Source: Minisyncoccota bacterium (lineage in GTDB: Bacteria; Patescibacteriota; Minisyncoccia; Phycocordibacterales; Phycocordibacteraceae). Taken from it: DNA of 64,000 nt. Below the pieces are notes generated by a model that ran no database searches, was not told the DNA's origin, and was given only the letters and a program-made list of their open reading frames with translations. The position numbers and the translations under genes were made by a program. Of the stretch, positions 34,650-44,855 are shown one piece after another; positions within the stretch are counted from its first letter, which is position 1; each line of letters opens with the position of its first letter. Location of the stretch: the NCBI GenBank assembly GCA_035627655.1, contig DASPLI010000001.1:323355-387354 (forward strand), written 5' to 3'.

Positions 34650-34723
34650 GCTGGTGTAGCTCAGGTAGTTAGAGCATGGGACTCATAAACCCAAGGTCGG
34701 AGGTGCAAGTCCTCCCACCAGCA
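34650..34723 (+). tRNA. tRNA-Met (CAT; elongator or tRNA-Ile2 precursor)
   Basis: Acceptor GCTGGTG/CACCAGC, anticodon loop CTCATAA. Confidence 0.8.
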
Positions 34724-34768
34724 CTAAGGCTTGCCGGGGAGGGCAAAAACCGCTAGAGTCTCAAGGTT

Positions 34769-34842
34769 GCGGTCGTAGCTCAACTGGTTAGAGCACCCGC
34801 CTGTCACGCGGGAGGTTGCGGGTTCAAGTCCCGTCGACCGCG
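34769..34842 (+). tRNA. tRNA-Asp (GTC)
   Basis: Acceptor GCGGTCG/CGACCGC, anticodon loop CTGTCAC, T-loop TTCAAGT. Confidence 0.8.
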
Positions 34843-36465
34843 CATCAAGACGGAAGGACGCCGAAAGGCGTCTTTCGTCGTTTGGGTACGCGGTGTTTCT
34901 GGTTCAAGTGCCTCAAAAACGGGCGATGTAGGAATCTTCAGTTCTTGGATAGGAAGAAACCAAGGCATGGCTTGAATGCTGAATTCTTTGCCGATCATCG
35001 TGCAGTTCAAGTCAGCAAGGCCGAGAAGGATCTCGCGCCGTGTTTTTGCATCTCCGCGCATGAAGGCTGCCCGGGCGTAGGTAGCAAACTCGAAGGTCTT
35101 GCGGGTCAGCTCCAGCCACTCAGGGTTCTCCTCACGATGCTTGGCGATGCGCTCGCTTAGGCGACCCATCTCGCCCTTGATGCGGTTCTTCTGCTGCAGG
35201 AAGTCATTGTCGTCTATGACACCGCGGCTGTAGCCTTCAAGCAGGCGGTCCAGCTTGTCTTGGTTCGCGTCGTAGGCCTTCTGCAGGCTCTCTATCGCGC
35301 GCTTCTTATCCAGGTTCGCTTCGTCAGCTTTTTCCTCGATGATGTCGAGAGCCCAGTCCAAGAACTCGGGCGGAATCGTTAGGCGTTCAAGCTCCTTGTC
35401 GATAGCTTCCTCAATAAGGTCCACGTTCAAGGCACGAGTAACCGAACCCTTCTCCTTAGCCTTGCGGCAGTGCTCGCAGAAGTAGAGAACGTAGCGGCGT
35501 ATACTCCCGTCCTTGAGCTTCTTTTTTTGGTTCGTAGCTATGACACCGTGTCCACGCTCGCACTTGATGACCCCAGTGTAGGCATATTGGTTTATTTGTA
35601 CGCGAGGCTTGCCACGCTTTCCGAGAATGACTTGTGCGCGGTCAAACTCCTCGAGGGTGATCATGGGTACATGCTTGCCCTGATATAGCTCTCCACCGTA
35701 CTCGAACCATCCTGCATAGAAGATATTCGTGAAGATGCGGTAGATGCTGCTGCGGGTAAGGGGCTTGCCACCCGTGAGAGCGGTCTTTCGTGTGAGAAAG
35801 CCGCGTTCGTGTGTCAGCCAGTTAAGGATCTGGATGGGCGTAAGATTCCCGGTCAAGAGCTTGTTCCAAGCCTCCTTGATGTCATCAAAGCGTTCCGGGT
35901 CCTGCTCATTCGTATTCTCGCCACGGTTCCGGGTTTTCGTGTTGATGTAGCCATGAGGGCAGCTGCCAGGACGCCATCCTTTCTCAAGCTTGCTCTTGAG
36001 CCCGCGTTTTACGTTCGGCCCAAGGTCTCGGCTCGACTGATTTGCTATACCGAACTCAAGGAAGGATATGAGCGCGTTGTCTTCTGGAAGAAACTCACGC
36101 TCGAAGGTGCGGATGTGTTTGATTTCTCCGCGTTGTAGCATTCCAAGAATCATCCCTGCTTCGTCTGGGTTGCGAGCGAGACGGTCTAGCTTCCAGGTGA
36201 TGATGCCTTGAGCTTCACCCTTCTTGATGCGGCGGATCATATCGTTGAAGGCTTCGCGCTTAAAGGGAACAAATGCTGAGCGCGATTCGGTAATGATTTC
36301 TTTCATGCGGAGGCCGTACTGCTTGGCCATGCCTTCAAGCACCGTCGTCTGGTCCTCTATTGACTGAACCTGACGCTCCTTAGATTCAGAGGATTTGCGG
36401 GCATAGCCGAAGTAAACGATGTCTTGCTTTGATGTCATGTTGGTGAGTAAGTGAATAAAGTGCAC
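34804..36465 (-). CDS. Large serine recombinase (phage-integrase type); 3' end overlaps tRNA-Asp
   Basis: N-terminal resolvase domain 'VYFGYARKSSESKERQVQSIEDQ' (catalytic Ser) and 'ITWKLDRLARNPDEAG'; recombinase domain and coiled-coil/zinc-ribbon C-terminus. Confidence 0.85.
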   Translation of the reverse strand: MHFIHLLTNMTSKQDIVYFGYARKSSESKERQVQSIEDQTTVLEGMAKQYGLRMKEIITESRSAFVPFKREAFNDMIRRIKKGEAQGIITWKLDRLARNPDEAGMILGMLQRGEIKHIRTFEREFLPEDNALISFLEFGIANQSSRDLGPNVKRGLKSKLEKGWRPGSCPHGYINTKTRNRGENTNEQDPERFDDIKEAWNKLLTGNLTPIQILNWLTHERGFLTRKTALTGGKPLTRSSIYRIFTNIFYAGWFEYGGELYQGKHVPMITLEEFDRAQVILGKRGKPRVQINQYAYTGVIKCERGHGVIATNQKKKLKDGSIRRYVLYFCEHCRKAKEKGSVTRALNVDLIEEAIDKELERLTIPPEFLDWALDIIEEKADEANLDKKRAIESLQKAYDANQDKLDRLLEGYSRGVIDDNDFLQQKNRIKGEMGRLSERIAKHREENPEWLELTRKTFEFATYARAAFMRGDAKTRREILLGLADLNCTMIGKEFSIQAMPWFLPIQELKIPTSPVFEALEPETPRTQTTKDAFRRPSVLMRGRRDLNPQPPA

Positions 36466-38026: not shown

Positions 38027-38521
38027 ATGGGACTGCTCATTGTTATCGGTCTCGTAGTGGCCGTGTTCGCGTGGATCGCGTTCGTAAAGACTGAACCGGC
38101 GCGCGCGGCGGCACGGGCGCGTCGGGATGCAGGACAGCAGCGCCAAGACGAGCTCCTTTCTCAAGCGGAGTATTTGATAGCTAGAGGGAAGGAACGGGCA
38201 ATGGAAGCATACGAGCAGCTGGCGCGGGATATACGAGCCATGCCCAAGTACGCCGTATGGAGGGAGGACGTTCTGCTCAAGCACGGCAGACGCTGCTCGA
38301 TATGCGGCTCCACTGAAAACATCGAGGTAGACCACAGGCACTCCCTGTACTCTCTCGTGCGGATCTATGGCATCACCAACCTTGACGAAGCGTATGCTTG
38401 CGACGCTCTCTGGGAGGTGGGGAATGGCAACCCGCTGTGCAGGCCCTGCCACGACAAGACGGCGCCAAGCGCATACCGCAGGAAGAAAGCCGCGCAAGGC
38501 GCGGCTGTTCCTCAAGCATGA
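38027..38521 (+). CDS. Membrane-anchored HNH endonuclease domain protein
   Basis: N-terminal TM, then 'CSICGSTENIEVDHRHSL...NGNPLCRPCHDKT' HNH/zinc-finger motif. Confidence 0.55.
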   Translation: MGLLIVIGLVVAVFAWIAFVKTEPARAAARARRDAGQQRQDELLSQAEYLIARGKERAMEAYEQLARDIRAMPKYAVWREDVLLKHGRRCSICGSTENIEVDHRHSLYSLVRIYGITNLDEAYACDALWEVGNGNPLCRPCHDKTAPSAYRRKKAAQGAAVPQA

Positions 38522-38926: not shown

Positions 38927-39994
38927 ATGCGAACGCCGTATACCACCATCGACCTGTTTGCTGGCATCGGCGGAATCCGAAAGGGCTTCGAGGCTGCCGG
39001 CTTTTCTACTCTCTATGCAGCTGACAATGACGCTTACTGCAAAGCGACTTACGACCTGAACTTCGCCAAGAAAGGAGCGCCGCTCGCTCTCCAGGATGTG
39101 GCTGCCATAGACCGTGCATCTCTCCCTGACTTCGATGCGCTTCTTGCCGGGTTTCCGTGCCAATCGTTTTCTGTTGCCGGCAATAAAAAGGGATTCGAGG
39201 ATACCGGACGCGGAGACTTGTTCTTCGAGCTTATGAAGATCGTCGAAGAGCGCGAGGAAGAGAAAAAGCCGCGCGTGGTATTCCTCGAAAACGTAAAGAA
39301 CCTCCTTACGCACGACCACGGAAGGACCTTCGTAATCATCAACGAGAGGCTGGCTAATGCCGGATACCATGTCCGCTTCAGCCCGCTCAGTAGCGCAGAC
39401 TACGGAGACGTTCCGCAGGCGCGCGAGCGGGTCTACATCGTGGGCTTCAAAGACAAGGCCGCGCATGACGCATTCGAGTTTCCTGAGAAGCTGCCGCGCA
39501 AGAAAACCATCCTTGACGTACTTGAAGACGGGGTGGATGAGAAGTACTACTACCGCGAAGGGTGGCTGTATGACCGCATCAAGAACCAGGGGATGAAGCC
39601 TGGCCGCGTATACCAGTGGCGCCGCGTGCACCTTCGGGAAATCAAGAGCGGGATCTGCTGCACCCTCACGGCCAACATGGGCATGGGCGGGCACAACGTG
39701 CCGCTCGTGTGCGATAGCAAGGGGCTCCGCAGGCTTACGCCTCGAGAATGCCTGCGCTTGCAGGGCTTCCCTGACACCTTCAAGATTCCAGAGACCATTC
39801 CGGAGTCCCGGCTATACAAGCAGGTCGGCAATTCGGTGACCGTCAGCGTCATCGAGCGCATCGCGAAGAACATAAAGAAGGCTCTCGATGCTGCAGAGAA
39901 AGCGGCAGAAGTAGAAACTTATGGCAGACGTATTCACAAAGGAAAAGCGGAGCGAGATCATGTCGCGCATAAGGTCGCGGCACACGTCGCCTGA
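38927..39994 (+). CDS. dcm: DNA (cytosine-5)-methyltransferase
   Basis: Motif I 'DLFAGIGG', motif IV 'GFPCQSFSVAGN', motif VI 'ENVKNL', C-terminal TRD. Confidence 0.9.
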   Translation: MRTPYTTIDLFAGIGGIRKGFEAAGFSTLYAADNDAYCKATYDLNFAKKGAPLALQDVAAIDRASLPDFDALLAGFPCQSFSVAGNKKGFEDTGRGDLFFELMKIVEEREEEKKPRVVFLENVKNLLTHDHGRTFVIINERLANAGYHVRFSPLSSADYGDVPQARERVYIVGFKDKAAHDAFEFPEKLPRKKTILDVLEDGVDEKYYYREGWLYDRIKNQGMKPGRVYQWRRVHLREIKSGICCTLTANMGMGGHNVPLVCDSKGLRRLTPRECLRLQGFPDTFKIPETIPESRLYKQVGNSVTVSVIERIAKNIKKALDAAEKAAEVETYGRRIHKGKAERDHVAHKVAAHVA

Positions 39995-40328: not shown

Positions 40329-40395
40329 CGGCTGTCCACAGGAGTATTGACAAAGCGTACATAGGGTATACCCTGCATAAATACGACCTATCCTT

Positions 40396-40638
40396 ATGCA
40401 GGATTCACCTAAAAGGGGAAAAAAGAGCGAAAAGAGGGAGCGCTTTGAGCGTTTGGCCGAGTACCGCACGAACGAGGTGTTGCGGAAGTTGAAGACTCTG
40501 GGGAACTGCGGGAACCGCAGCGCCTACGAGTACACTGAAGACGAGGTGGGCAAGATATTCTCCGAGATCGAGCGGCAGGTAAAGGAGGCGCGCGCCAAAT
40601 TTACCTTCCCTAAGCGCTCGGGCAAGTTCACGCTCTAA
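40396..40638 (+). CDS. Small basic protein, first gene of the GHKL-ATPase operon
   Basis: 80 aa, Lys/Arg/Glu-rich; 16 nt upstream of the GHKL gene. Confidence 0.3.
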   Translation: MQDSPKRGKKSEKRERFERLAEYRTNEVLRKLKTLGNCGNRSAYEYTEDEVGKIFSEIERQVKEARAKFTFPKRSGKFTL

Positions 40639-40654
40639 AATTAAATACCCCGAC

Positions 40655-42529
40655 ATGAAAAAAGATGGCCTCGAATGGCACTTCCCAGACCTGCAGCACG
40701 CCGACTCCGAAGGCCTTAACGATCCATTGCTCCAGTATTTCGGGGGCAACCACAACCGCTACATAGCCCGCGAGGTCATACAGAACTCGATAGACGCCCG
40801 CAAGGACGATACGCAGCCAGTAGTGGTGAAGTTCACGCGCCTCGAGCTGCCTACTGCCGAGGTGCCGGGAGTCGCTGAGCTGAAGAAGCATTTGGAAGTC
40901 TGCTTGGAGCAGGCTAGGAGCGAGCAGAACGAAAAGGCGGAACGCTACTACGAGGACGCGGTGCGCGCTGCAGGCGAGCCGAAGACCATCGTGCTCCGCG
41001 CGTCGGACTTCAATACCTCCGGCCTTACGGGAGAGGACAAGGACAAGCGGGGCAAGTGGCACCGCCTCGTGCGCGCCGTAGGCGAGAACCAAATGTCAGG
41101 CGTGGGCGGAGGCTCATACGGCATCGGTAAGGGAGCGCCCTTCGTCGCTTCGCGCATGCGCACCGTCTACTACTCCACGAAGAATGAGGACGGCGACGTT
41201 ATCTTCCAGGGCAAGGCGCGGCTCATGAGCCACGAATTGAAAGGCAAGGAGTACCGAGGCGTAGGCTCTTTCGGCGTCGAGGGCTATAAGTCGGTAAGGG
41301 ATCCGAAGGCAATCCCGCCTGCTTTCTTGAGGCAGGAGCAGGGCACGGACATCAGCATCATAGGCTACATGCCTAACCTTGCATGGGCCGACGAGCTTGC
41401 GGCATCGGTGCTCGACAACTTCTGGATGGCGATCTACTCGGGCACTCTTGAAGTCGTCATAGGGAACAGCAGCGGCATAGGCGAGCTTCGCATCGACCGC
41501 TCGACTCTCCGCGAGCTCTTGGAGAAGCACTGCAAGGACAGCGGATTTATCTACTACAAGTGCGTCATTGACTCGAGCCGCACGTTCGAGAAGCAGCTCC
41601 CGCTTCTGGGGCTTTGCCGCTTGCACGTGCGCATCGAAGAGAAGTTTCCGCGCCATATCGCCGTCATGCGCAGGCCGAAGATGGTGGTCGACACCATGCG
41701 CTTCCCGAAGACGCTTCAGCAGCCGTTCGCAGGCGTCTTTATCTGCGACGATCCTGAAGGAAACAAGATACTCCGCGGCATGGAGCCGCCGGAGCACGAC
41801 AAGTGGGACCCGGATCTCGACCCCGTTAACGGCAGGGCTGCGCTCAGCGAGATACGCGAGTGGATGAAGCACAACCTTCTCGAGCTCGCCGAAGAAGAAA
41901 GCGGCGATCCTGAAGAGATTCCAGAGCTCGAGAAGTTCCTGCCGTATGACGAGGATTCGGAGCGCGCGTCGGAATCGAGCAAGAGCCGGACTCAGGCGAC
42001 GGGTACTGCCGGCCGCGATGAGAGCGCTATGGAAGTAGGCGCAGAGCGCGATGAGGAGGCGCGCGAGATCGAAGCTTTCGTGCACAAGCCGTCCTCGGTA
42101 AGGGATAACGACAAGGGCGGCATGGCCCCTGATTTCGACGACGACGGCAAGGGCGGAAGCGACGGGGGCAGCGGCGGAACTGGCGACGAATCCGGCGGCA
42201 AGGGAGCAGAGCGCATCAACACTTCGCAGGCGCGTTTCCGCATCATCTATACGGGCAAGAAGAAGGATCGTGCCGAGTACTGCCTCGTGATTACGCCGAT
42301 GATGGACCAGGAGGGAGGCGTGAACATCGTCGCTCTCGGAGAAGACTCGACCGTCTACCCGGTTTCCGTAGCCGAGGCCGAGGAGTGGGGAAAGAAGGCA
42401 AAGACGTACAAGCACAGTGGCTCGTTCATCGCAGGCCTGAAGCTCAAGAAGAACAAGCCTGTCCGCATCCGCATCGAAACTAAGTCCGCTTCGCGCTACG
42501 CGCTAGGCATCGAGAACCATGAAGGCTAA
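40655..42529 (+). CDS. MORC/MutL-like GHKL (Bergerat-fold) ATPase with a long acidic disordered linker and a C-terminal domain
   Basis: N-box 'IAREVIQNSIDA', G1-like 'SDFNTSGLTG', G2 'GGGSYGIGKGAPF'; acidic Gly/Asp/Ser-rich segment around residues 420-520. Confidence 0.6.
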   Translation: MKKDGLEWHFPDLQHADSEGLNDPLLQYFGGNHNRYIAREVIQNSIDARKDDTQPVVVKFTRLELPTAEVPGVAELKKHLEVCLEQARSEQNEKAERYYEDAVRAAGEPKTIVLRASDFNTSGLTGEDKDKRGKWHRLVRAVGENQMSGVGGGSYGIGKGAPFVASRMRTVYYSTKNEDGDVIFQGKARLMSHELKGKEYRGVGSFGVEGYKSVRDPKAIPPAFLRQEQGTDISIIGYMPNLAWADELAASVLDNFWMAIYSGTLEVVIGNSSGIGELRIDRSTLRELLEKHCKDSGFIYYKCVIDSSRTFEKQLPLLGLCRLHVRIEEKFPRHIAVMRRPKMVVDTMRFPKTLQQPFAGVFICDDPEGNKILRGMEPPEHDKWDPDLDPVNGRAALSEIREWMKHNLLELAEEESGDPEEIPELEKFLPYDEDSERASESSKSRTQATGTAGRDESAMEVGAERDEEAREIEAFVHKPSSVRDNDKGGMAPDFDDDGKGGSDGGSGGTGDESGGKGAERINTSQARFRIIYTGKKKDRAEYCLVITPMMDQEGGVNIVALGEDSTVYPVSVAEAEEWGKKAKTYKHSGSFIAGLKLKKNKPVRIRIETKSASRYALGIENHEG

Positions 42530-43343
42530 AAACATATCGTATCCATATCCGGTTCTCGGGAACGAGGACGACGTAAAGGGAACTTTCGACGTCTCCTTCA
42601 AGCACGCGCTTCGCCGGGAGGAAGTAGCGCTCATGGTCGGCTTCAAGCTCAAGAACAAGTCGCTTGAAAAGCTAGTAAAGGAGAAGAAGGCAGCATTCAC
42701 CGTCGAGGTGGAGTGTCCTGGCACCTTCTTCCGAAAGAGCTTCTCGACCTTCGAGCACGACGCCCGGTTTGTGATCGGCTCAGGTCTGGTGCGGGAGCAC
42801 GTGTCGGCAGCCTTCTATGTCCGCGCCGTCGAGCCGCTGCCTAAGTACAAGATCGACGGAAGCCACCCTGACTACGAGGGGTTCCCGTTCGACATAGGAG
42901 CGGGAGACGTGCTCGCGCTCGGAGGACACACCTCGTTCATCGCGGAGAAGGACTTCGACCCGATGCGCCCTGCGGTCTCGTCCTTGATAGCTATCAAGCC
43001 CGGCACGCATGCGGTCGGACCGATGCAGATCGACTACAGCCAGGACAAGATTCTCATTAAGCTCTCCGAGCGCGACTACAAGAACTACGGAATCGTAAAG
43101 GGCAGGGTGGGCATTGCAGGCGTGCTGCACGCATCCATCGTCCTTCCCGTACTGGCAGAAGCCATCAAGCTCGTACACGAGAAGGACCATGAGACGCAGG
43201 GAACGCACTGGCACAAGCGGCTTGAAATCATCCTGCGCCAGCAGGAGCTGCCGGCCGACGACGGGCTGCTCGCTGCGCAGAAGCTCTTGCGCAGCCCGCT
43301 CGAGCGGTGCTTATCAGGCCTCGCGGAGGATAGCGACGATTAA
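42519..43343 (+). CDS. Hypothetical protein, translationally coupled to the GHKL ATPase
   Basis: ATG overlaps the GHKL stop (ATGAAGGCTAA); no recognised motif. Confidence 0.4.
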   Translation: MKAKNISYPYPVLGNEDDVKGTFDVSFKHALRREEVALMVGFKLKNKSLEKLVKEKKAAFTVEVECPGTFFRKSFSTFEHDARFVIGSGLVREHVSAAFYVRAVEPLPKYKIDGSHPDYEGFPFDIGAGDVLALGGHTSFIAEKDFDPMRPAVSSLIAIKPGTHAVGPMQIDYSQDKILIKLSERDYKNYGIVKGRVGIAGVLHASIVLPVLAEAIKLVHEKDHETQGTHWHKRLEIILRQQELPADDGLLAAQKLLRSPLERCLSGLAEDSDD

Positions 43344-43344
43344 T

Positions 43345-44136
43345 ATGCCAAACCAAAATATCTTCAAAGGAATGTTCGTGTCAGAGCTCCGCGACAAGGT
43401 GCGCAACGGGGAATCGCTTTGCGACTACTTCAAGGCGGAGCTCGACTATCCTGCAGACGCGGTGATGGAGTCTCCTATAAAGGTAGTGCCCGAAAGCCTC
43501 GAACTGAAGTACAAAGGTCCGGGCGAGACGGTCAGCAACGATCTTGAGAATGCCATTGCGCTTTACGAAGCGTTTCCGGACTTAAACGAAACCCAAGCGT
43601 CGGACATCCGCCTGTGGACCTACCTGACGCACGTGTCCCTTCGCGACTACGTGCGCAAGCGCTGGCCTCTGGCAGGAACCTGCGAGCAGGCTATGAAGGA
43701 CAAGAAGACGAAGGAAGCCGCAATCAGCTACGTCCTAAGCCACTGGTTTGCATCGGGAGGCAACGACCGTTCGCTCCGCCGCAATGCTGCTGCCAGGCTT
43801 TGGTGGGCTGTGCGTCTGACCCGGGCGCCGTGGGAGCGCGACGAATTCTTCAAGGATCTTGGAGGTAAGGATGCGGACCCCTACCGATTCACGCGCACCC
43901 TGTTCTCGACGCAGGACGTCTATCAGCAGGTGCTTGAGCGAGGCCTGGGTCGCGACAACCGCATACTCATAACCGTTCTCGAGTTCATAGACGGACAGGA
44001 AGGCATCAAGCGCGAACAGATCCGCGACTTTATGAAGGAGCTAAACCTTGCGCTCTCTGTCCGCAACTTCTCGCTCCTCAGCAGGGAGGAAATGAAAGCG
44101 GCGATCTTCGAGCTCGGCAATGCAGCAGTTAAGTAG
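43345..44136 (+). CDS. Hypothetical protein of the same operon
   Basis: Starts 1 nt after the previous stop; conserved-looking 'WTYLTHVSLRDYVRKRW', 'LSHWFASGG'. Confidence 0.4.
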   Translation: MPNQNIFKGMFVSELRDKVRNGESLCDYFKAELDYPADAVMESPIKVVPESLELKYKGPGETVSNDLENAIALYEAFPDLNETQASDIRLWTYLTHVSLRDYVRKRWPLAGTCEQAMKDKKTKEAAISYVLSHWFASGGNDRSLRRNAAARLWWAVRLTRAPWERDEFFKDLGGKDADPYRFTRTLFSTQDVYQQVLERGLGRDNRILITVLEFIDGQEGIKREQIRDFMKELNLALSVRNFSLLSREEMKAAIFELGNAAVK

Positions 44137-44141
44137 CGATC

Positions 44142-44519
44142 ATGGAAGCAAGGCTGCCCGATCCTAAGGACTCGCTATACATTCGCACCTTGCTCTGGGC
44201 TTTTGAGCGTAAGAATACAGGGTTCACTATGGACGAGCTGAAAGCCGCGATGAATGTAGACGGCAGCGAATGGGAATGGCTTAAGTGGATGTTTACGGAA
44301 GGCTTGAACGGTGAAGCGCCTCTCATCCACTACAGGCATATGCCGAGCCAGAAATACACGTACTTCCTTACAGCATCAGGAACAGCTGCAACAATCGACT
44401 ACCTCGAGCTTAAGGAGGCGCAGCGAAGCGGAAGCCGAGCAACGCTCATCGCATTCATAGCCATCGCCATCTCCATTATAGTAGGAGCAGCCCAGATATA
44501 CTTCGACGCCTTTTACTAG
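44142..44519 (+). CDS. Small protein with a C-terminal TM anchor, last gene of the operon
   Basis: 'ATLIAFIAIAISIIVGAAQIYF' TM; 5-nt spacing from the previous gene. Confidence 0.35.
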   Translation: MEARLPDPKDSLYIRTLLWAFERKNTGFTMDELKAAMNVDGSEWEWLKWMFTEGLNGEAPLIHYRHMPSQKYTYFLTASGTAATIDYLELKEAQRSGSRATLIAFIAIAISIIVGAAQIYFDAFY

Positions 44520-44855
44520 AAGCCGCCAAGAGAACCCGTCCGCAGCACGGAGATCAGCAGGTAGCCTTAGAAGGCAATCGTCAGCTCCTCTGCAAGAGCG
44601 AGCCCACACAGAATACAGGTTGCATCCATTCCATTCGGGAGGGCCGCATCGCATACACAGACTTGTTCGTAGGTCATGCGACAAGACTAGCTGAGTCCCT
44701 ATTTATGCTTCGAGCTACCTAGAAAGGACTCTGTGGCTCAACTGCGGGATGTGAATGTGGCCTTGATGCTGCCGGATTTTAGTTCCAACAGCCTTCACGA
44801 TGTTGCGCAAGATAACAAAGCAAGAAGCCGCCTCTTGGCAGCTTCTTGCTTTGGG

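Follow-up and report, generated by a model that had tools for sequence, protein, structure and literature searches.

A four-gene cassette next to dcm and vsr

We analysed a window of 64,000 nucleotides from a Minisyncoccota bacterium (contig DASPLI010000001.1 of assembly GCA_035627655.1, forward-strand positions 323,355 to 387,354; all coordinates below are those of the window), and focused on a run of five co-oriented genes that includes a predicted GHKL ATPase and lies immediately downstream of a gene pair encoding the C5 cytosine methylase Dcm and the endonuclease Vsr. We refer to the five genes as small, A, B, C and D. With the upstream pair and the domains of A, they are laid out as follows (aa, amino acids; TM, transmembrane; pLDDT, the per-residue confidence of the structure model):

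38927-39994, plus strand: C5 cytosine DNA methyltransferase Dcm, 355 aa; PF00145 matched end to end (E=2.4e-83), TIGR00675 at 307 bits
39921-40328, plus strand: Vsr very-short-patch-repair endonuclease; PF03852 (E=1.6e-25), TIGR00632 at 113.9 bits (cut-off 97.85)
40396-40638, plus strand: small basic protein, 80 aa; conserved fourth component, outside the PADLOC definition of PDC-M33
40655-42529, plus strand: A, GHKL ATPase, 624 aa
40655-41434, plus strand: A residues 1-260, GHKL (Bergerat-fold) ATP-binding domain
41438-41899, plus strand: A residues 262-415, S5-like transducer domain, ending in the ExxxH-motif loop
41942-42199, plus strand: A residues 430-515, disordered acidic Gly-rich linker (pLDDT 35-45)
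42212-42529, plus strand: A residues 520-624, C-terminal all-beta domain
42519-43343, plus strand: B, 274 aa, PDC-M33B; beta-rich N-terminal half and helical C-terminal domain
43345-44136, plus strand: C, 263 aa, PDC-M33C, DUF6339; PF19866 (E=6.8e-43), PADLOC PDC-M33C (E=4e-34)
44142-44519, plus strand: D, 125 aa, with a C-terminal TM helix; lineage-specific cargo in a variable slot after C

The five open reading frames (ORFs), their coordinates and their spacings had been described in a first-pass annotation of this DNA, and all hold in the sequence: small and A are separated by 16 nt, A and B overlap by 11 nt, and C and D start 2 and 6 nt, respectively, after the last base of the preceding gene. 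The identical gene set is called on two independent public assemblies of the locus, with the start of C placed 9-11 codons later; in the window, the ATG start of C is nested in a longer TTG ORF. The translation of dcm carries the FPCQ and ENV catalytic motifs, and its 3' end is overlapped by the start of vsr, which gene callers on other assemblies place 13 codons later, at 39960. The profile searches that the first-pass annotation had proposed brought a partial return. A, B and C match the PADLOC profiles PDC-M33A, PDC-M33B and PDC-M33C almost end to end (E=6e-128, 2.5e-55 and 4e-34, respectively), consecutively, in the same orientation and with the order kept, and C matches DUF6339, while the Pfam family HATPase_c_3 was not matched; no other Pfam, NCBIfam or PADLOC profile was matched by any of the five proteins.

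To delimit the conserved unit, we collected 78 genome loci from many phyla, taking one genome per species, and added one Arthrobacter locus, which yields 79 loci (individual loci are given by their L numbers). We called the ORFs in all of them and counted homologues by iterative profile searches with each window protein. A is present in all 79 loci, C in 70, B in 62 and small in 56, while dcm is found in 62, vsr in 38 and D in none. Clustering of the neighbouring ORFs within approximately 7-8 kb revealed, beyond small, B, C, dcm and vsr, no family common to more than 13 loci. The three larger proteins diverge in step, as judged by the pairwise protein distances among A, B and C (Spearman correlations of 0.89-0.92). 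In the closest relative of the window locus, in which A is 83% identical, the genes run in the order recombinase, dcm, small, A, B, C, with an unrelated gene of 318 aa at the end. The locus counts and this layout define a core of four genes (small, A, B and C), to which the lineage-specific D does not belong; the recurrence of small-A-B-C as a block is far beyond chance. Co-occurrence across genomes, which the first-pass annotation had suggested as a check, thus speaks for the association, with A accompanied by B, C and Dcm in most of the 79 loci, while the five-gene operon that it had posited shrinks to four genes.

A distant clade (L069-L071, L074 and L076-L079; Mesorhizobium, Longimicrobiales and Chloroflexota) retains A, a weakly matching DUF6339 protein, dcm and often vsr. 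In eight loci (Chloroflexota, Longimicrobiales and one Mesorhizobium), a different gene of approximately 300-370 aa takes the place of B between A and C; comparison of B with the replacement gene of the Chloroflexota/Longimicrobiales clade by hhalign gave E=0.0078 at a probability of 5%, which does not establish homology.

None of the 9,182 ORFs of the 79 loci is a homologue of D. Given this count and the unrelated 318-aa gene at the same place in the closest relative, we rejected D as a component of the system, and with it the effector role that the first-pass annotation had assigned to the TM protein. The gene after C is highly variable: it may encode a ThsB-type TIR protein, a DUF4760 or DUF6119 protein, a small multi-TM protein, an AraC regulator, an HNH_2 protein overlapping the end of C, an NgoFVII-like enzyme or a TOTE primase-helicase, and many loci have no same-strand gene after C at all. 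Unrelated genes follow C directly in L002, L003, L006, L009, L010, L024, L038 and L041, often with gaps of only 5-15 nt. The position could be a swappable effector slot or could simply hold island cargo.

The ATPase and its partner proteins

The Bergerat-fold motifs that the first-pass annotation had pointed out in A are present: the N-box R39-E40-x-x-Q-N44-x-x-D47-A (REVIQNSIDA, residues 39-48), a variant G1 box D118-x-N120-T121-x-G123-L-x-G126 (DFNTSGLTG, residues 118-126) and the G2 box G153-S-x-G156-I-G158-K-G160 (GGGSYGIGKG, residues 151-160). The ATP site is intact, and its key residues are invariant in 117 homologues (E40, N44 and D47 of the N-box; D118, N120, T121, G123 and G126 of G1; G153, G156 and G158-G160 of G2). 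The structure model of A shows the Bergerat fold in three dimensions and compares best with the ATPase module of SMCHD1 (comparison figure of 19.7, 300 residues aligned), followed by MORC3 (18.7), MORC2 (18.0), TRAP1 (16.5), MutL (15.0) and ParE (14.8). The 284-300 residues of A that align to the SMCHD1 and MORC3/MORC ATPase modules exceed a GHKL domain alone, which indicates that the GHKL domain of A is followed by an S5 transducer. The predicted fold and the invariant motifs together identify A as a GHKL and S5-transducer ATPase of the MORC/SMCHD1/MutL type.

This membership rests on motifs and fold, as sequence profiles are nearly silent: A is matched by PADLOC PDC-M33A and by no Pfam, NCBIfam or PDB sequence profile, neither A nor any of 35 homologues matches HATPase_c or HATPase_c_3 in Pfam at E up to 5, and hhalign of A against the HATPase_c_3 ATPase of an Arthrobacter Mza-like locus is not significant. 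The S5 domain is closed by the loop E377-P-P-x-H381-D-x-W384 (ExxxH), and R339, M343, E377, H381 and W384 of A are invariant in the same 117 homologues. Beyond this domain, the first-pass annotation had described an acidic Gly-rich disordered linker and a C-terminal domain. Both are there, while the linker is somewhat shorter than the 100 or so residues it had been given: it measures approximately 86 aa (residues 430-515, pLDDT below 50) and carries an ExxEVGAE motif with E456 invariant and E460 at least 90% conserved across phyla amid variable surroundings. Judged from its conservation pattern, the motif looks like a docking peptide for a partner. The C-terminal domain (residues 520-624) is confidently predicted as an all-beta, beta-sandwich-like fold. 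A MutL-type C-terminal dimerisation/endonuclease domain is not seen in A, and matches to MutL span only 243-266 of the 624 model residues.

The A family is large, with 1,946 clusters at 50% identity (E up to 1e-30), and ranges over Patescibacteria, Bacteroidota, Actinomycetota, Chloroflexota, Bacillota, Deinococcota and haloarchaeal plasmids; in annotated collections it is found on 24 plasmids and in two phages, and a scan of IMG/VR viral contigs gave no relatives. A is split into at least two ORFs in L033, L041, L055, L060, L073, L077 and L078, and dcm is split in L050, L055 and L073. Splitting of A would fit a costly, restriction-like function, although weakly so, since the loci are metagenome-assembled genomes with possible assembly errors, to which A would be more exposed through its greater length.

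All four core proteins are currently annotated as hypothetical or as domains of unknown function. The small protein measures approximately 75 aa across loci, is encoded directly upstream of A in 56 of the 79 loci and has five invariant residues among 31 sequences (F17, R24, N40, Y44 and F69); it has no match among Pfam, NCBIfam, PADLOC or PDB profiles. Relaxed Pfam scans (E up to 5) of family members of A, C and small gave nothing consistent, and PDB sequence profiles gave no match for A, B, C or small. B is modelled as tandem Ig/FN3-like sandwiches (approximately residues 1-182) followed by a helical C-terminal domain; comparison of the model with PDB libraries revealed no enzyme fold, no restriction-endonuclease (RE) fold and no nuclease, and on these grounds B was rejected as a PD-(D/E)xK or HNH nuclease. 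The invariant residues of C are just W91 and W153, and among its charged residues R106 alone is conserved at 90% or more; we doubt that C is a PD-(D/E)xK or HNH nuclease, solely as its alignment lacks conserved acidic and His residues. Some C homologues in otherwise canonical loci bear a C-terminal DnaA-type helix-turn-helix (HTH) domain (PF08299). Overall, we recognised in the core no domain of a nuclease, a helicase or any other effector, with A and B examined as models and C and small by sequence searches alone.

Methylase linkage and mobile context

For the linkage with the methylase, we used the 50 loci with at least 2.5 kb of upstream and at least 5.5 kb of downstream flank. The gene for Dcm is present in 43 and that for Vsr in 27 of these. 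The methylase gene shares the strand of the cassette, either upstream or downstream of it, or lies downstream in convergent orientation. Across the 63 loci that have either gene, the nearest dcm or vsr is no more than 150 bp from the cassette in 60, with a median gap of 66 bp. Furthermore, the protein distances of Dcm correlate with those of A, B and C at 0.64-0.67, values reached by none of 300 permutations, and for A and Vsr the distances correlate at 0.74; some part of these correlations stems from shared host ancestry. The link to dcm-vsr, which the first-pass annotation had drawn from a single locus, therefore extends across the family, as seen in presence, in adjacency and in co-variation. 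A copy in a Clostridium innocuum phage (prophage-type, with A only 28% identical) has a C5 methylase with FPCQ and ENV motifs approximately 1 kb beyond its C-like gene.

Recognisable restriction enzymes vary from locus to locus. EcoRII is found beside dcm in L032, L056 and L066, and by position in L068; NgoFVII or its C-terminal domain in L001, L041, L043 and L060; an HNH_2 protein in L024; a member of the MutH/Sau3AI family on a Priestia plasmid (L086); and a protein annotated as 'type II restriction endonuclease' on a Paenarthrobacter plasmid. Most loci of Patescibacteria, Bacteroidota and Chloroflexota have no recognisable type II restriction enzyme. EcoRII and Sau3AI require two recognition sites and DNA looping, and neighbours of the EcoRII, NgoFVII and Sau3AI types would fit a looping role for the GHKL ATPase. 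In the window, we recognised no cognate restriction endonuclease beside dcm, the sole candidate being a weakly matching 164-aa ORF (38027-38521, plus strand) located 405 nt upstream of dcm. A TM helix lies at its N terminus, and its HNH-like motif has the form CxxC...H...N...CxxH (Pfam HNH, E=0.01); it is not conserved across other loci and measures 106 aa in a second assembly of the locus (L090). The ORF may encode a small restriction enzyme, or it may be unrelated cargo.

Four further features bear on the boundaries of the island and of the unit:

34769-34843, plus strand: tRNA-Asp (ARAGORN and Rfam), within a tRNA-Met/tRNA-Asp pair spanning 34650-34843
34804-36465, minus strand: large serine recombinase (Resolvase and Recombinase Pfam domains), its 3' end overlapping tRNA-Asp
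40348-40372, plus strand: TTGACA hexamer followed by the perfect 12-nt palindrome AGGGTATACCCT (40361-40372), between vsr and the small ORF, by direct reading of the sequence
44816-44853, minus strand: strong 17-bp hairpin between D and a convergent HxlR gene (terminator scan and HxlR gene call)

The last 13 or so codons of the recombinase are the reverse complement of the 3' end of tRNA-Asp, and this overlap suggests that an island integrated at or beside tRNA-Asp. The recombinase is likely to mark the left end of a mobile island that carries the cassette. Consistently, a homologous serine recombinase lies close to the cassette in 13 loci and in L080, and the G+C content of the island is 0.58-0.61 as compared to 0.48-0.53 in the flanks (44-47 kb and 29-32 kb). 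We found no att-type direct repeats delimiting the island, which is what a serine recombinase would lead one to expect. Between the recombinase and the HNH-like gene, where ORFs are few, the putative island holds a LOOT RNA (Rfam RF03000; 37579-37698, plus strand; 53.1 bits against a gathering score of 46.4). Across loci, the defence genes nearby include Mza, NgoFVII, a FokI-like protein, NERD, Shedu and DarT; in Arthrobacter, a Mza-like locus lies a few kb from the cassette.

The hairpin is likely a terminator and the right edge of the unit. At the other end, the TTGACA hexamer and AGGGTATACCCT could tentatively be read as the promoter and operator of the cassette; the site is not among the results of a consensus promoter scan. 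Palindromes with arms of at least 6 nt precede the small gene in 40 of 54 loci, often as AAATAT...ATATTT, in regions so AT-rich that an excess over chance is not established. They resemble the operator boxes of restriction-modification (RM) controller proteins.

Interpretation and comparison with known systems

We propose, as a reading that we hold to have an even chance of being correct, that the cassette is keyed to methylation and serves a restriction-like defence as its MORC-like DNA-clamping module; the nuclease would be either cryptic or contributed by variable neighbours. In essence, the paraMORC restriction-modification model (Iyer et al. 2008, PMC2292703) is here applied to a family that Pfam does not recognise. 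In such a scheme, the Dcm encoded at the locus would methylate host sites as a self-mark. A, with its GHKL and S5 fold and ATP-site residues, would by analogy with other ATPases of this architecture dimerise on ATP and clamp or loop DNA. C, which in some homologues has a DnaA-type HTH, and the small basic protein may load the complex onto DNA, with B possibly acting as an adaptor, and DNA that lacks the Dcm mark would then be blocked or processed by the complex. Since no nuclease is recognised in the core, either a cryptic active site or a variable neighbour would have to do the cutting; candidate neighbours are Vsr, HNH proteins and, where one is adjacent, a type II enzyme (EcoRII, NgoFVII or Sau3AI-like). 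The reading draws its support from the conserved small-A-B-C block, the tight adjacency to dcm in three orientations and the co-variation with dcm, as well as from the phage copy with its C5 methylase, the mobile and defence context, the PDC-M33 listing and the fusions of C to an HTH. The first-pass annotation had likewise taken the locus for a candidate defence module: A, B and C do correspond to a PADLOC candidate, while defence itself is suggested by context, as before.

Several observations weigh against this proposal. A clade of Clostridia and Lentisphaera has no dcm (L053, L054, L058, L061, L065 and L057). In its position, directly upstream of small, these loci encode a protein of approximately 915-1020 aa (in L057, only its C-terminal part) that combines an HTH resembling sigma-70 region 4 with a conserved C-terminal domain of approximately 320 aa; we found neither methylase motifs in this protein nor any similarity of it to B or C. 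Two Deinococcus loci, both chromosomal, are without a methylase in the 10 kb of flank on each side. Megaplasmids of Ligilactobacillus salivarius carry N6 methylases instead, in the order hsdS-hsdM-[small-A-B-C]-N6 methylase-helicase-GIY-YIG. In approximately 11 loci, dcm already has a recognised type II restriction enzyme at its side, so that the cassette is not needed there as the restriction partner of Dcm. No nuclease fold was recognised in A or B, and B and C are almost devoid of invariant charged residues. PDC-M33 is itself one candidate among 145, put forward as defensive by context: Payne et al. 2024 (bioRxiv 10.1101/2024.01.29.577857) selected these by 'guilt by embedding' in BREX, DISARM or type I RM systems. 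Finally, the methylase partner is almost exclusively of the C5 class, as opposed to N6 or N4, and this would suit a function in the chemistry of 5-methylcytosine (5mC) as well.

The last point leads to the main alternative, in itself rather unlikely, in which the cassette helps to control 5mC damage as a MutL-like accessory that aids or replaces very-short-patch repair of the T:G mismatches arising from 5mC deamination. To our knowledge, Actinobacteria, which are among the hosts, lack MutS and MutL, and such an accessory would suit a methylase link that is specific for the C5 class and holds with or without a restriction enzyme; the presence of Vsr in 27 of the 50 flank-qualified loci and its distance correlation with A also count in its favour, as does the functional interaction of MutL with Vsr in E. 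coli (cited in Iyer et al. 2008, PMC2292703). However, about half of the loci have no Vsr, divergent cassettes have N6 methylases or no methylase, and copies lie beside a phage integrase or are embedded in RM-like systems. Moreover, A is nearer to SMCHD1/MORC than to MutL, with no MutL-type C-terminal endonuclease domain seen, and four genes are many for a repair accessory. We consider it unlikely that the cassette is an independent, self-contained defence system with its own trigger and effector, brought near methylases merely through islands or through insertion into RM loci. The three-gene PADLOC definition includes no methylase, L037, L039 and L057 have none within 10 kb on each side, the complete type II RM systems of the 11 or so loci mentioned above need no partner, and other defence genes lie nearby. 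The spacing, at most 150 bp in 60 of 63 loci and often with a shared strand, is nevertheless much tighter than island co-localisation, and the neighbour is nearly always of the C5 class, where an unspecific island effect predicts otherwise; dcm co-varies with the core, and the core contains no recognised effector domain.

It is highly improbable that the locus is a five-gene abortive-infection operon in which the TM-anchored D, switched on by the ATPase, disrupts membranes. D does start 6 nt after C on the same strand, and in several Patescibacteria loci C is likewise followed immediately, across gaps of 11-14 nt, by a gene for a small TM protein or a ThsB-like TIR protein, which is what makes an effector slot conceivable. 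But D has no homologue among the 79 loci, its place is taken by another gene in the closest relative, the genes found after C are mutually unrelated and include regulators, surface proteins and whole other systems, and many loci have no same-strand gene there. A variant that we also regard as unlikely dispenses with the nuclease: a MORC/SMCHD1-like clamp guided by DUF6339 and the small protein would trap or compact DNA lacking the Dcm mark and thereby silence or stall the invader. Beside two-site type II enzymes (EcoRII, NgoFVII, Sau3AI-like), looping could also join distant sites and extend restriction to DNA with sparse sites.

If the core is truly without a nuclease, the cassette would exemplify a GHKL clamp that reads a methylation mark, and if the nuclease-free variant is true, it would be a bacterial counterpart, possibly a forerunner, of the methylation-linked silencing by MORC and SMCHD1 in eukaryotes; the family thus bears on the evolutionary origin of these proteins. 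In the small genomes of Patescibacteria, the mobile cassettes that recur and plausibly serve defence appear to include this one. More generally, A represents a large and widespread ATPase family that is still without functional annotation.

Among the nearest described systems are those of the prokaryotic MORC/paraMORC ATPases. GHKL ATPases were described in operons with cytosine methylases and Vsr, and DNA looping between recognition and cleavage sites was proposed for them (Iyer, Abhiman & Aravind 2008, PMC2292703). The GHKL and S5 architecture, the cytosine methylase/Vsr neighbourhood and the sporadic, mobile distribution are common to these and the cassette. The same study gives as the hallmark of paraMORC2 an ExxxH motif within the S5 domain's C-terminal portion, which the invariant E377 and H381 of A fit; as the likeness is by published description and not by sequence comparison, we suggest only that A may belong to or near paraMORC2. 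While paraMORC operons have superfamily II helicase or RE-fold nuclease partners, the cassette, as judged by neighbour clustering, has none of these and has small, B and C instead, which are not described in Iyer et al. 2008 (PMC2292703); nor does the A family (35 homologues) match Pfam HATPase_c_3. The 'two-component-like' HEF_HK/Response_reg_2 elements (Bellieny-Rabelo et al. 2021, PMC8011034) likewise place GHKL genes beside C5 methylases and Vsr, but carry HATPase_c_3, HEF_HK and HATPase_c domains and a receiver-like partner, none of which is present in the cassette.

Among eukaryotic proteins, SMCHD1, MORC2 and MORC3 share 9-14% sequence identity with A; their hinge, CW and coiled-coil domains are absent from A, which has the disordered acidic linker and the C-terminal beta domain. 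The E. coli Dcm-Vsr-MutL set offers the same trio of C5 methylase, Vsr and GHKL and S5 ATPase, but no MutL-type C-terminal domain is seen in A, Vsr is optional and the cassette is mobile and patchy in distribution. BREX and DISARM, which combine a self-marking methylase with large ATPase complexes and no obvious nuclease, are functional analogues only: they share no proteins with the cassette, and its methylase is a plain type II-style C5 enzyme.

Methylase-linked systems with paraMORC-type GHKL cassettes are thus already known, and PDC-M33 was flagged earlier as three anonymous families. In Payne et al. 2024 (bioRxiv 10.1101/2024.01.29.577857), it is the three-gene cassette CAS_00129 with a table figure of 98, apparently the instance count, and in the parts that we searched we found no domain description and no methylase link for it; one such embedded instance lies inside a type I RM-like locus of L. 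salivarius. The literature that we searched yielded no mention of PDC-M33 or DUF6339. What we contribute beyond that definition is a fourth gene, small, together with the linkage to Dcm/Vsr and the MORC-like fold of A, which ties PDC-M33 to a composition: a Dcm-linked, four-gene, MORC-like candidate.

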